Assembly (NCBI GenBank): GCA_002780065.1
Contig: PEWQ01000075.1
Span: 1-47,261, forward strand
DNA: 47,261 bases
Reading direction: 5' to 3'
Source: Candidatus Hydrogenedentes bacterium CG07_land_8_20_14_0_80_42_17
Lineage (GTDB): Bacteria > UBA8481
A model generated the notes under the pieces. That model did no database searches, was not told the origin of the DNA, and was given only the letters and a program-made list of their open reading frames with translations. Each line of letters begins with the position of its first letter. Position 1 is the first letter of the stretch. Of the stretch, positions 12,622 through 47,261 are shown piece after piece. A program made the translations under genes and the position numbers.

Positions 12622-12644
12622 CGCGGTTAGTTGCATCCGATTCA

Positions 12645-12896
12645 TTTGTCATTGCGAGGAGCGGACTCGCAGAGTCATCGCGACGAAGATACCAAGATAC
12701 TGAGTTTTTTTATCTATTTTTTTCCTTGTCTCCAGCCTATCTTTCAAAGGACGTGTGAAATAATTGAAAAATGAAAATTGGAAAAATAAAATTTTCAATT
12801 TTCACTTTCCAATTTGCAATTTCAAATATAATAACATACCAGCAATCTGTTAACATTAAGAGATTGCTTTGCACCTTCGGTGCTCGCGATGACAAA
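12645..12896. mobile_element. Composite non-autonomous palindromic element (outer element interrupted by a 152-bp insert)
   Basis: Terminal IR TTTGTCATTGCGAG / CTCGCGATGACAAA; inner IR AGCAATCT/AGATTGCT; GCAC-CTTCGG-TGC hairpin. Insert 12689-12840 is homologous to 25075-25315 (reverse) and to the window end. Confidence 0.7.
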
Positions 12897-12946
12897 ATAC
12901 TACTTTTTGGTCAACCCCAATAATTCGCCATGCTCCCAACTATTTC

Positions 12947-14795: not shown

Positions 14796-15754
14796 AAAAT
14801 ATTCTCGAAATCGAAAACCTTTCCATTTCAACAAAATTATCTGAAACTGAAATAAACATTGTTGACGGAATATCACTCTCAGTTTCAGTCGGAGAAGTCA
14901 CCGGACTAATAGGAGAATCAGGATCAGGTAAATCCATAACCGCTCTAGCTGTTATGGGGCTTCTTCCCTCAAATCTTAAAATTTCGTCAGGTTCAATTAA
15001 ACTCGACGGATTAGAGTTGACTTCTGTTTCACAAAAACATTTTCATAACATTCGCGGAAAAATCGCGGCGATGATTTTTCAAGAGCCGATGACAAGTCTG
15101 AATCCGGTAATAAAAATAGGAGAACAAATTGCTGAAGTTTTTAAACTTCATTGCAGATTGACAAAAAAAGACGCCCATAATAAGGCAGTGGAAGCGCTTT
15201 CAAAGGTTGGAATCGGAGATCCCAAAAAAAGAGCGGAACAATATCCGTATCAATTATCCGGAGGCATGCGGCAGAGAGTTATGATTGCAATGGCTCTAGC
15301 TTCAGAGCCTAAACTCCTGATTGCAGACGAACCCACAACTGCGCTCGATGCCACAGTTCAGGCTCAGATTTTGGAACTGCTTCACTCAATAATAGAAACT
15401 GAAAAAGAAAAAGGAATACTTTTTATTTCTCACAACATTGGAGTAGTTTCCGAAATTGCCGACAAAGCAGTTGTCATTTATTCTGGTAGAGACGTAGAGT
15501 CAGGCGATGCAGAAGCTCTTTTGAATATGCCTCAGCATCCTTACACCGAGGGTCTTATTGCTTCGATGCCGAAACATTCCAATAAATCGAAACGTCTTTG
15601 TACTATTCCCGGGCAGATCCCACGGCCAATTGAACGGCTTTCCGGCTGTTCATTCAGGAATAGGTGCTCATTTGCGAAAGAAATATGCAGTGAAGAGATC
15701 AGCGTGCAGTCGAAAAATGGATATAAGCTTAGGTGCATTAAAGAACTCAAATGA
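14792..15754 (+). CDS. Oligo/dipeptide ABC transporter ATPase (OppD/DppD type)
   Basis: GESGSGKS, FQEPMTSLNP, LSGGMRQR, ADEPTTALD, HPYT, C-terminal Cys cluster. Confidence 0.93.
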   Translation: MKNILEIENLSISTKLSETEINIVDGISLSVSVGEVTGLIGESGSGKSITALAVMGLLPSNLKISSGSIKLDGLELTSVSQKHFHNIRGKIAAMIFQEPMTSLNPVIKIGEQIAEVFKLHCRLTKKDAHNKAVEALSKVGIGDPKKRAEQYPYQLSGGMRQRVMIAMALASEPKLLIADEPTTALDATVQAQILELLHSIIETEKEKGILFISHNIGVVSEIADKAVVIYSGRDVESGDAEALLNMPQHPYTEGLIASMPKHSNKSKRLCTIPGQIPRPIERLSGCSFRNRCSFAKEICSEEISVQSKNGYKLRCIKELK

Positions 15755-16752
15755 AAAATAATTCAAAATCGCTAGTAAAACTTGAAAATGTCTCTGTTGA
15801 TTTTTCCATTTCCAATTCATTGTTTGCAGACGGCAAAAAAAAATTACGCGTTGTTGATGAAGTCTCGCTTGAAATCTATAAAGGCAAAATATTGGGATTG
15901 GTAGGTGAATCCGGCTCGGGGAAAACAACACTCGGAAGAGCAAGTATTCGACTAATTCCTACTGCTGCCGGAAAAGTTTTTTTTAATGGAATAGAACTAG
16001 AAAAATTACGCAAAGAAGAATTGAGAATAATGCGCCGCCAAATGCAGATTGTGTTTCAAGATCCTAATTCCAGTCTCGATCCTCGAATGAAAATAAAAGA
16101 TCTTATCGGCAATCCTCTGCTCGTTCACAGAATTGCAAAAAATAATGAGCTCAAAGACAGAACCGCTAAAATAATGGAAAGGGTCGGACTCTCTCCCGAT
16201 GAAATGCACAAATATCCTCATCAATTTTCTGGAGGGCAGAAGCAGAGGATTTCTATTGCTAGAGCTCTTATTCTTGAGCCGGAATATATTGTATTAGATG
16301 AACCCGTATCTGCACTCGATCTATCAATTCAGGCTCAAATAATAAATTTAGTTTTGGATCTCCGAAAAGAACTCGAATTGACCTATCTTTTTATCTCTCA
16401 TGACATTGGCGTGGTATCACATGTGAGCGACAGGGTAGCTGTAATGTATTTCGGGCGAATTATGGAGATAGGGGAAAATGTTTTCGAAGATCCGAAGCAT
16501 CCCTATACCATGATGCTGATCGAATCGCTTCCCGGAAAAAAGATTAAACCTGTCGGGAAACCTCCACGAGGCGAACCTCCACGAGGCGAGCCTCCACGAG
16601 GCGAACCTCCACGAGGCGAGCCACCGAGCATATTTGAATCCAGGAGCGGCTGTGTCTTTTATTCTCGATGTCCGATTGGAGATGAAGAATGCAAAAAGAT
16701 CGTTCCTCAATTAAAAAACGGAGTGGCTTGTCTCAAGAAAAACGGGTGCTGA
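15751..16752 (+). CDS. Oligo/dipeptide ABC transporter ATPase (OppF/DppF type)
   Basis: GESGSGKT, FQDPNSSLDPR, FSGGQKQR, DEPVSALD, HPYT. Confidence 0.93.
   Translation: MKNNSKSLVKLENVSVDFSISNSLFADGKKKLRVVDEVSLEIYKGKILGLVGESGSGKTTLGRASIRLIPTAAGKVFFNGIELEKLRKEELRIMRRQMQIVFQDPNSSLDPRMKIKDLIGNPLLVHRIAKNNELKDRTAKIMERVGLSPDEMHKYPHQFSGGQKQRISIARALILEPEYIVLDEPVSALDLSIQAQIINLVLDLRKELELTYLFISHDIGVVSHVSDRVAVMYFGRIMEIGENVFEDPKHPYTMMLIESLPGKKIKPVGKPPRGEPPRGEPPRGEPPRGEPPSIFESRSGCVFYSRCPIGDEECKKIVPQLKNGVACLKKNGC
16561..16620 (+). repeat. In-frame 15-bp tandem repeat x4 (PPRGE)
   Basis: CCTCCACGAGGCGA(A/G) x4, equal to a perfect 30-bp unit x2. Confidence 0.95.
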
Positions 16753-24496: not shown

Positions 24497-25069
24497 ATGG
24501 GCAAGTATACTCAAATAATTCTTCTTTTGCTGATCATTGCAGGCACTATTTTCGGAGTCTTATATTTTTTGCAATCAGAAGGATTTGTCGATGTGACAGG
24601 GCCGCTGACCGGCATTGCAGGCGAAATTCCATGGGTCGGCAAGTATTTCGATCATGGGTCCGGTCTGCCTTACAATGAACTTGCGGAACTGGAGCGGCTG
24701 AAAGAAAAAACCGCTCGAGAAGACCGCTGGCTCACGTTGAAGAAGAAAGAAGATAAATTGCGAAAAGACGAACAGACTTTGAATGAGGATCGAGACCGTC
24801 TATCGCAATGGGAGCGAGAGCTCGAGCGCAGAGAAGAAGCATTAGTATTGCGAGAAAAAGAATTTACTAATAAAGAAGCTCAGTATGAGAAAGCCGTAAA
24901 ATTTTATCTTTCTATGCGTCCTGTAGCCGCCGCAAAAGTGCTGTCTCAGCAAGATGACCTTTTAGTCATAGAATTATTCCGGAGAATGCCTGAAAGAAAT
25001 GTATCCGCAATTCTAGCCGAAATGGATCCAACTGTTGCAGGAGCAATCATGCGCAAGATGGCAAGGTAA
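24497..25069 (+). CDS. MotE/YlxF/FlbB-like flagellar protein (TM, coiled coil, MgtE-N-like C-terminus)
   Basis: YLSMRPVAAAKVL..MPERNVSAILAEMDP; position after fliJ. Confidence 0.8.
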   Translation: MGKYTQIILLLLIIAGTIFGVLYFLQSEGFVDVTGPLTGIAGEIPWVGKYFDHGSGLPYNELAELERLKEKTAREDRWLTLKKKEDKLRKDEQTLNEDRDRLSQWERELERREEALVLREKEFTNKEAQYEKAVKFYLSMRPVAAAKVLSQQDDLLVIELFRRMPERNVSAILAEMDPTVAGAIMRKMAR

Positions 25070-25074
25070 TCTTC

Positions 25075-25315
25075 ATACTTCTCCCGTTATATTTAAAATT
25101 GCAAATTGCAAATTGAAAATTATATTTTTCGTAAGCGCTCACTCGGTAAGAAAATTAGCCACAAAAAAGCACAAAAACCGTGCAAAAAATGAATAAAAAT
25201 ATCTCTTTTTTGTGTGCATTCGTGTTTATTCGTGGTTCAAATTGCGACTGAGCGGCGTATAGGTGAACGGTTACCATTTTTCAATTATTTCATACATTCT
25301 TTGGGATAGAAGTAT
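25075..25315. mobile_element. Three-layer nested MITE-like element
   Basis: Outer 8-bp TIR ATACTTCT/AGAAGTAT; middle TIR GTAAGCGCTCAC (25131) / GTGAACGGTTAC (25263-25274); inner AGCCAC..GTGGTT palindrome with short repeats. Confidence 0.7.
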
Positions 25316-25316
25316 A

Positions 25317-26513
25317 CTATCTCAAATTAAGTAAAGTCTCCACTTCTTCAATCGGCATTGAAAATCTTTTGGCTATTTCATCAGCAGAAGCTCCGGCTTC
25401 AGCAAGTTCTTCGATCATGGAATACTCGTTTGATTTCGGTGACGGCCTTCTTCGGCGCTCTAACTCTTCCCCCATAGATGCTGCATTTTGTAAGGCGCTT
25501 AGCCTTTGTATTCTTCTCTCAACTTCGTCGTGAAATCCTGGATCATGTCCTGTGGGGCCCGTTTCAAAAACAAATGTTCCTTCCGACGCTGCTTTGTTAA
25601 GAATAGGAGATCGCCGCCTCTTTTTCTTACCTGTCTCTCTAACAATAGCTTCTTCTTCAAATTCATTTTTATTATAAGCTTCAGAGAAATCTTCAGCATC
25701 ATCTCGAGAAAATCTTTTTTGCTGTAGAATATGCTGGTGGCGCTTTGCAGATGGTTCAATCGGAGGCGCCCATGTGGCTGGCATTTCATCGTCTAGTGTT
25801 CTCTTGTTATGTTTATATCGAAATCCGATCATACCTAGCGAGGCTAGAAAAAGCGCGCTTGCCGCAATTTTATACCACCCTGCAGTTCCGCTTGGCCGAA
25901 TTTCTGTCTGATTGCTTTTATCGGCAGACTCTAATTTATTCAATCGAGAAGTTGGCTCTCCAAGCGACTCGCGTCTTGAAATGAATTGCCCGGCTTCCTC
26001 AGGAGTAGAATTTTCTTGGTTTGAAACAGCTTCGACTTGATTTGAATTCAGTTCTACAGGCTGAATAGCTTCGGGCGAAAGACTTTCAGGTTTCGGTACA
26101 CTCAAGGCTGATTGCTGTAGAGAAGGAACTTCTTCAGCAGAACCTTCCGCAGTCGAAATTGTATTTTGAGAATTACTGCTTTGGGTTGCCGTTGTCACGG
26201 GCGAATTATTTGTAGCTGATCGCCTACCAGAAGGCGGTGTAGGCCTTACAGGTGCAATTACTCTTCGAGGTCTTGCCGGCAGTATTGCATTCGAAGATGC
26301 CGGCCAAAGACTGTTTGCATTTCTGACTTCCCCAGAACTTACCGCAGATCCGGTTGGATTCTTTTGCCCGAACGAAACTACCTTTATTTCCGAACCGGTT
26401 GAAGATTCAAGTTCGGCAAGAACAGGCTGATGCAGTAGAGCGACAAGAAATACGCTCGTGCAAACATACTTACAAAACCTTATTTGAAACATGAAAGAAA
26501 CTATTTCTTTCAT
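25317..26513 (-). CDS. Single-pass membrane protein with low-complexity ectodomain and C-terminal DUF2802/SwrB-like HTH
   Basis: Signal-like N-terminus, S/P/T/E-rich region, TM WYKIAASALFLASLGMIGF, C-terminal LAEAGASADEIAKRFSMPIEEVETLLNL. Confidence 0.6.
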   Translation of the reverse strand: MKEIVSFMFQIRFCKYVCTSVFLVALLHQPVLAELESSTGSEIKVVSFGQKNPTGSAVSSGEVRNANSLWPASSNAILPARPRRVIAPVRPTPPSGRRSATNNSPVTTATQSSNSQNTISTAEGSAEEVPSLQQSALSVPKPESLSPEAIQPVELNSNQVEAVSNQENSTPEEAGQFISRRESLGEPTSRLNKLESADKSNQTEIRPSGTAGWYKIAASALFLASLGMIGFRYKHNKRTLDDEMPATWAPPIEPSAKRHQHILQQKRFSRDDAEDFSEAYNKNEFEEEAIVRETGKKKRRRSPILNKAASEGTFVFETGPTGHDPGFHDEVERRIQRLSALQNAASMGEELERRRRPSPKSNEYSMIEELAEAGASADEIAKRFSMPIEEVETLLNLR

Positions 26514-47174: not shown

Positions 47175-47261
47175 TTTGAACCACGGAGTTACAGAGACAC
47201 GGAGATTTTTAAATAATTTTTTATTTTTTTTATCCTTGTCTCCAGCCTATCTTCCAAAGAA
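47175..47261 (+). mobile_element. Third copy of the composite repeat, truncated by the window end
   Basis: TCCTTGTCTCCAGCCTATCTTCCAAAGAA matches 12723-12751 with 2 mismatches; TTTGAACCACG (47175) equals the reverse complement of 25231-25241. Confidence 0.7.

Follow-up and report, generated by a model that had tools for sequence, protein, structure and literature searches.

Between two convergent genes at the end of a flagellar gene row, the genome of a groundwater bacterium holds a short stretch of DNA in which repeats lie inside repeats, and the question raised by this locus is whether it represents a system of small mobile elements that has not been described, or a known kind of element that has landed in another repeat. 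The window, by which we mean the whole stretch of 47,261 nucleotides that was analyzed, is contig C6 of a MAG of 2.39 Mb (207 contigs, 87% complete, 42% G+C), and 24 public runs contain the region, every one of them labelled as a groundwater or aquifer metagenome. The nest occupies a 247-bp gap, and between 25070 and 25316 there is no open reading frame of 80 aa or more. To the left the gene order is flgB-flgC-fliE-fliF-fliG-fliH-fliI-fliJ-SLT-MgtE_N-like, and the initial annotation was correct in placing the nest where this row stops, at 25069. That annotation had also proposed three nested layers. Our analysis points to two: an IS66-type MITE inside an abundant heptamer palindrome (H), a case of nested selfish DNA that is real and neat and at the same time ordinary in kind.

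Anatomy of the nest and its outer repeat

The features to which we refer are the following, in the order of the nest and then of the uninterrupted H copy of the window.

24497–25069, + strand: gene of 190 aa that closes the flagellar row, matched weakly by MgtE_N, with its stop 5 bp ahead of the nest
25075–25086, no strand: flank of the outer repeat copy (..ACTTCTCCCG), complementary to 25304–25316 and paired when the whole gap is folded as RNA
25087–25130, − strand: right arm of H, heptamer array AAATTGC ×3.7 (nhmmer profile positions 39–87, E 9e-6; TRF period 7 at 25096–25121)
25123–25130, + strand: putative 8-bp target duplication, left copy TATTTTTC (from the sequence and the alignment with the second MITE copy)
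25131–25274, + strand: 144-bp non-coding element, a candidate IS66-type MITE, its limits set by alignment with the second copy, where the flanks are wholly different
25131–25142, + strand: left terminal inverted repeat GTAAGCGCTCAC (from the sequence, and compared with the IS66 inverted repeats in PMC12888890)
25159–25235, no strand: inner imperfect palindrome CCAC..GTGG, at the same place in both MITE copies and integral to the MITE
25207–25234, + strand: right inner arm, resembling the CCACGAAT-type palindromes of the genome, a likely conversion patch
25263–25274, + strand: right terminal inverted repeat GTGAACGGTTAC, with an identical 12-mer at C77:4866–4877
25275–25282, + strand: putative 8-bp target duplication, right copy CATTTTTC (evidence as for the left copy)
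25275–25304, − strand: left arm of H (nhmmer profile positions 2–32, E 5e-3)
25317–26513, − strand: convergent gene, 398 aa, with a DUF2802-like match under the cut-off; its stop abuts the nest
12744–12835, + strand: canonical uninterrupted H, inverted arrays TGAAAAA ×3.7 and AATTTTC ×4.7 (nhmmer E 2e-24; TRF at 12765–12822; ssDNA fold)
12774–12780, + strand: heptamer AAAATTG, present in canonical H copies and missing from the nest copy

The alignment on which the nest was first recognized holds up: in a repeat search of the window, 25087–25130 and 25275–25303 match, in reverse complement, 12781–12831 and 12745–12773 at 85–91%. A profile built from 58 other canonical copies and searched with nhmmer matches the nest in two pieces as well, positions 39–87 at 25130–25089 and 2–32 at 25304–25274, with the central heptamer skipped, and none of 1000 first-order Markov simulations, which served as A+T-rich controls, reached the real score for either arm. 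Because of the profile matches and the simulations, we take the alignment of the nest to H to be real.

H itself is an imperfect palindrome of ∼90 bp composed of two inverted heptamer arrays. As single-stranded DNA its canonical form folds at −14.9 kcal/mol, better than shuffles (z −3.26). No other repeat in the genome is as abundant: the core 16-mers of H are the most frequent of all, with up to 162 copies, and nhmmer places H at 198 non-overlapping loci, 66 of them near full length and 131 less than 200 bp from a contig end. An H copy stands within 200 bp of 96 of the 414 contig ends, which accounts for the fragmentation of the assembly, and given the copies at contig ends, the true copy number is probably higher than the one counted. 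The copies are 93–99% identical to one another, and many have a CGGGAGA-type flank beside them. H was not found in three genomes of the same family and one of the same order, where the sole match comprised 32 A+T-rich bases.

Not all copies have the same spacing between their arms. The left arm of H matches at 111 places, with canonical spacing in 86; three of the 111 (on C28, C160 and C151) are short-loop variants without ∼15 bases, and several H copies have extra 14-bp units. A real insert is present in the window copy only, the one other long spacing being a run of N. The copy at 12.7 kb, which had been presented as the matching empty site of the nest, is one among the 86 canonical copies, and it is the copy on C160 that fits a model of the empty site best.

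H is usually part of mosaics with other short modules, as at 12641–12918, where four modules with 10–186 BLAST hits each stand together. A YchF-like gene and a DUF4332 gene border this mosaic, which fills all the space between them. Apart from H it contains two hairpins, one of CATTGCGAGGAGCG..GCGACGAAG type and one reading GAGATTGCTT..CGCGATGAC, and also a CTTGTCTCCAGCCTATC module, with 10–40 BLAST hits each. At the contig end, 47217–47259 is another CTTGTCTCCAGCCTATC..CAAAG module, like the one before H at 12707–12749, so that an H copy probably lies beyond the end of the contig. A 17-bp unit, GCGTCCATTGACGCGAG, is found in long tandem arrays with ∼110 hits at one mismatch or fewer (e.g. C94:8094–8300, C37, C159 and C177); these arrays terminate in GGAGGCACAGGCGCC and often abut H copies, and one is located just upstream of the RAYT-like gene of C2.

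Neither a terminal inverted repeat nor a duplication was seen at the H borders in 43 copies. The genome has four to five Y1_Tnp matches, and the four ORFs scanned against NCBIfam all fall below the cut-off of NF047646, the REP-associated transposase. Two complete RAYT-like genes (C131:21523–22368 and C12:8576–9445), which encode 281–289 aa with an N-terminal Y1_Tnp and a long C-terminal extension, each stand between inverted repeats of their own, which in one case number 29 copies, and have neither H nor GTAA ends at their flanks. A RAYT link to H or to the MITE was rejected because the RAYT-like genes are bracketed by other repeats. The 29-copy repeat, GGGGTCAGGCTTGAAC, suggests a separate REP-like family, and the RAYT-like protein of C12 has a weak DnaA C-terminal-like match.

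Intergenic mosaics in which a few short modules occur in many combinations are known from the bacterial interspersed mosaic elements (BIMEs) of E. coli and from pneumococcal BOX. The mosaic build around the nest is alike, whereas the module sequences are unrelated, and here one part is a recognizable DDE-type MITE. Among cyanobacteria, STRR sequences are heptamer repeats, and the SDRs, of ∼24 nt, nest in one another without IS-type ends. The H nest shares with these the heptamer periodicity and the nesting of something small in a repeat, but phylum and sequences differ. The REPINs and their RAYT transposases, as described in PMC3116915, come close in another way, since H is likewise short, extragenic and palindromic, with its 198 loci of 93–99% identity and its ssDNA hairpin, and RAYT-like genes are present in the genome. 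Unlike in that system, H does not flank a RAYT gene, the RAYT-like genes standing here beside other repeats, and it consists of heptamer arrays in place of two inverted REP units; the MITE in turn differs from REPINs, which have neither its terminal inverted repeats nor its target duplication. The same source reports that small repeats insert into or beside existing ones in the case of REPINs.

The 144-bp insert and its IS66-type features

Several parts of the middle layer are as they had been described: a 144-bp insert is present with 12-bp imperfect inverted ends (10/12), and it contains both a second inverted repeat (25136–25145 / 25245–25254, 9/10) and the CCAC..GTGG palindrome. What could be added is a second copy. 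The assembly holds it incompletely, because contig C23 ends within it. When metagenomes were scanned with a 20-base pattern from the end of the element, four loci came up, one being the window locus with one base change and three being the complete C23 locus. There the element measures 152 bp, has the same ends and is found upstream of the start of a gene, in the A+T-rich spacer that separates the two arms of a CCACGAAT-type palindrome, and not in H. When the window was compared with the three metagenome contigs of the second locus, ends and loop were identical at 85 of 87 positions and the flanks were unrelated, so that the shared ends fix the exact boundaries of the element. Both outer layers of the nest occur independently, as the initial annotation had supposed, H in its 86 uninterrupted canonical copies and the element in this second copy outside any H. 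Two of the metagenome contigs at the second locus, L016 and L014, differ in the host palindrome, whose right arm has one more unit in L016; CCACGAAT-type palindromes therefore vary in unit number between strains.

Earlier, no clear TSD had been recognized. The C23-locus element is flanked by a perfect 8-bp direct repeat, AAATAAAT (8/8), and the window element by the two 8-mers listed above, which match at 7/8. With GTAA(G/C)CG termini, an 8-bp target duplication and no coding capacity, the middle layer appears, as judged from its sequence, to be a MITE of IS66-family type. GTAA ends and 8-bp duplications are generally described as typical of the whole IS66 family. The ends of the element read GTAAGCGCTCAC and GTAACCGTTCAC, with GTAAGCG(C/T)TCAC as the left-end form, while the IS66-family inverted repeats given in PMC12888890 read GTAAGCGTCCGG.. 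and GTAACCGTCCGG..; by our own count the agreement is 9/12 for each, with the first 8 bases identical and the same G/C at base 5. According to PMC3281130 (Table 2), the captured IS66 elements ISPpa5a and ISPpa7 made 8-bp repeats.

Remains of IS66 elements are present in the same genome. At C1:5399 there is an end, GTAACCGTTCGG, whose first 10 bases equal the right end of the MITE; after it come TnpA, matched weakly and below the cut-off (NF047593, E 7e-5), and a TnpB_IS66 broken by stops (E 4e-19). ORF1 of this relic had no Pfam match. The end of contig C47 carries a frameshifted TnpC fragment (E 4e-7). The C1 relic also has a palindromic repeat beside it, a CCACGAAT-type half palindrome at ∼55 bp (C1:5279–5398).

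An intact IS66 element with matching ends was found neither in the 87%-complete assembly, which has the decayed relics on C1 and C47 only, nor in the four other genomes of the phylum, where one fragment (in G004) has no recognizable end. Among wider genome contigs a 15-base end pattern matched at least 120 loci at chance level in unrelated phyla, with no intact IS66 partner nearby; the seven of these that were inspected lie mostly inside ORFs, and none goes beyond chance or has a convincing second end. A search of the genome for ISL3, IS256 and TnpB (PF07282) transposases gave no match, and a plasmid collection contained nothing matching. The view that unidentified enzymes mobilise the layers is accordingly altered in one part and kept in another: the IS66-type ends, the 8-bp duplication and the IS66 relics point to a family, but no intact partner of the element was found.

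The element resembles IS66-derived MITEs, of the three-gene IS66 or the single-gene ISBst12 group, in its GTAA(G/C)CG ends with imperfect 12-bp terminal inverted repeats, in its 8-bp duplication (both targets being low-complexity and A+T-rich), in its small non-coding length of 144–152 bp, and in the company of broken tnpA/tnpB/tnpC relics. It differs from them in that the search for an intact parent element with matching ends found none and only two full copies are known, in that its insertions lie in palindrome centres, and in that its core palindrome appears to exchange sequence with unrelated palindromes. The initial annotation, which had offered the layer as an undescribed system, named a known IS family with ordinary TSDs as the finding that would speak against this, and such a family is what the ends and flanks indicate. 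We would class the layer as an IS66-type MITE family that is new and small, one that comes from a very sparsely sampled groundwater phylum (five genomes in the searched set, namely the host MAG and four others). In the passages retrieved by our literature searches on IS66 together with MITEs, IS66 appears only in tables of insertion sequences; searches on nested bacterial MITEs returned nothing relevant.

The innermost palindrome had been counted as a separate inserted layer. It is found in both MITE copies at the same place and adds no length, and since the window copy is the shorter of the two, nothing has been inserted as a third layer. The two copies differ mainly within it, its two arms accounting for 10 of their 12 mismatches and for every one of the 12 gap columns. 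In the window copy the right inner arm (25207–25234) is identical at 27 of 28 positions to an unrelated palindrome at C7:120–147, as against 22 of 29 columns in the sister copy, where both inner arms are of the CACAAAA type. In the window this arm is probably a conversion patch derived from a genomic CCACGAAT-type palindrome. Such palindromes form ∼20 clusters in the genome, with GAACCACGAAT occurring 18 times against 1.2 expected. The recurrence of the palindrome's end at 47175, which had been pointed out earlier, comes down to a shared 11-mer, TTTGAACCACG, that BLAST does not report at E 1e-3.

Probable insertion into palindrome centres and competing explanations

Three insertion sites of the element are known: the window nest, the C23 locus and a solo end on C77. 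The last is the right-end 12-mer at C77:4866–4877, which meets ..GAAAAATAAAATTTTC of a different H copy exactly where the nest has its junction; its orientation relative to H is opposite to that in the nest, its H arm has one more heptamer, and upstream of it come ∼50 bp of other sequence and then a small membrane-protein gene. We read it as a probable second landing in H, independent of the nest but at an identical position, and truncated later. A further possible solo end (11/12) stands at the start of C204, so the family as known is very small: two full copies, plus one solo end or perhaps two. All three insertions lie in the A+T-rich centres of palindromic repeats, and the locus shows neatly how a repeat can offer a safe or preferred place to land. 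Structure recognition, an A+T-rich preference and survival in harmless places are three explanations of this pattern that we cannot separate. In the minimum free energy fold of canonical H the position equivalent to the insertion is in the left arm and not at the apex, while in the short-loop form it would be at or near the apex.

The explanation that we prefer, with a rough probability of 75%, is that an IS66-type MITE inserted with an 8-bp duplication into a short-loop copy of H, and that the inner palindrome is part of the MITE, with one arm converted. The outer layer would then be a somewhat diverged short-loop copy. An IS66-family DDE transposase supplied in trans would bind both MITE ends and cut H at its A+T-rich centre with a stagger of 8 bp, so that insertion of the element duplicates (C/T)ATTTTTC. 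The missing heptamer would reflect variation in heptamer number among H copies, not replacement, and the right inner arm of the MITE would have been overwritten by gene conversion from one of the ∼20 CCACGAAT-type palindromes. What had seemed an undescribed system thereby turns into something testable and mostly ordinary, an IS66-type MITE that landed three times in palindrome centres.

One point at which this explanation has to be weighed is the duplication at the nest itself. If one of the two 8-mers is removed, the resulting site model is a short-loop H, whose best gap-free match is C160 (83% over 72 bases), a copy that also has the GTATG variant of the left arm seen in the nest; C28 matches without gaps as well. 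The site model that keeps both 8-mers is also gap-free, to the H variants on C1 and C151. Since both models fit, the test does not discriminate between them and the nest alone cannot prove a duplication: heptamer slippage makes both readings possible at this site, and the 7/8 repeat could be the inherent heptamer repeat of H. Support for duplication comes from the second locus and from a repeat length that agrees with IS66, although the perfect repeat at that locus could belong to an A+T-rich spacer with native AAAT periodicity. The statement that the element stands in place of the heptamer AAAATTG fares similarly, being true against canonical H, while variation in heptamer number explains the absence as well.

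One competing explanation keeps the three-tier hierarchy of undescribed elements, with no target duplication, unknown enzymes and one heptamer replaced. It draws on the exchange of insert for AAAATTG just described, on the position of all three insertions in centres of palindromic repeats, on the fact that no enzyme has been assigned to the spread of H, and on the RAYT-like Y1 transposase genes in the genome. We nevertheless think it very unlikely, because 8-bp repeats flank both complete copies, the ends are of IS66 type with IS66 relics in the same genome, the innermost palindrome is common to both copies without added length, and the RAYT-like genes are flanked by repeats that are neither H nor GTAA ends. 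From the picture of elements that insert into each other's hairpins one part can be retained, namely that an element stands at the palindrome centre of another repeat, but the three insertions belong to one element family and not to several. A related and unlikely idea is that H is a new kind of non-autonomous repeat with an undescribed mechanism, whose apex is a preferred landing site that the MITE recognizes through structure and not through A+T content, and that the MITE core swaps sequence with genomic palindromes; if this were true, the repeat families of the lineage would evolve as an interacting network.

A transposition-free origin would make the nest a mosaic of repeat modules from recombination or template switching, as in BIMEs, with illegitimate recombination or heptamer slippage bringing the 144-bp hairpin together with the arms of H. 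It would suit intergenic DNA built from modules in many combinations (four at 12641–12918), an inner arm that looks converted, and the half-nest on C77, taken as a rearrangement at the same junction. Such an origin is very unlikely nonetheless, for the break points coincide with the exact ends of an element with terminal inverted repeats whose ends are found again at an unrelated locus, and the break falls on one and the same base in two H copies that carry the element in opposite orientations. Finally, the 144-bp segment could be kept mainly as a bidirectional terminator or small RNA, its repeat-like features being secondary. The location between convergent genes would favour this, as would the fold of the whole gap as RNA (−54.6 kcal/mol, better than shuffles at z −2.95), a terminator-like site on the minus strand at 25183–25169, downstream of the minus-strand gene, and an insert that is unchanged in four runs except for one variant base. 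We regard it as extremely improbable: one such site against 0.6 expected from shuffles is no excess, the best Rfam hits of the nest and of the 12.7-kb mosaic are far below gathering scores, the second copy precedes the start of a gene instead of standing between convergent genes, and a search for RNA runs among the 24 found none. The MITE by itself folds, as single-stranded DNA, no better than shuffles (z −0.85), which also counts against the preferred explanation.

Against the preferred explanation, a MITE insertion into H, also stand the failure to find an intact IS66 partner, the very small size of the family and the lack of an empty site among the contigs; presence/absence polymorphism had been suggested as a check. 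Contigs from four groundwater or aquifer runs all carry the insert with 0–1 differences, and although no empty site appeared among them, contigs cannot show absence. Joints that skip 144/146 letters were considered as an empty allele and rejected; they have 7–9 other letters between the two sides and a shorter side of 24–27 letters, and come from other H copies.

Two further repeats were noted in the window. At the start of the contig, 38–134 holds two identical 29-bp direct repeats, GTCGCGCCCCGTGCGGGGCGCGTGGATTG, 68 bp apart, which looks like the end of a CRISPR array, and at 16546–16620, within the ORF 15751–16752, there is a 15-bp tandem repeat, CCTCCACGAGGCGAA, of 4–5 units.
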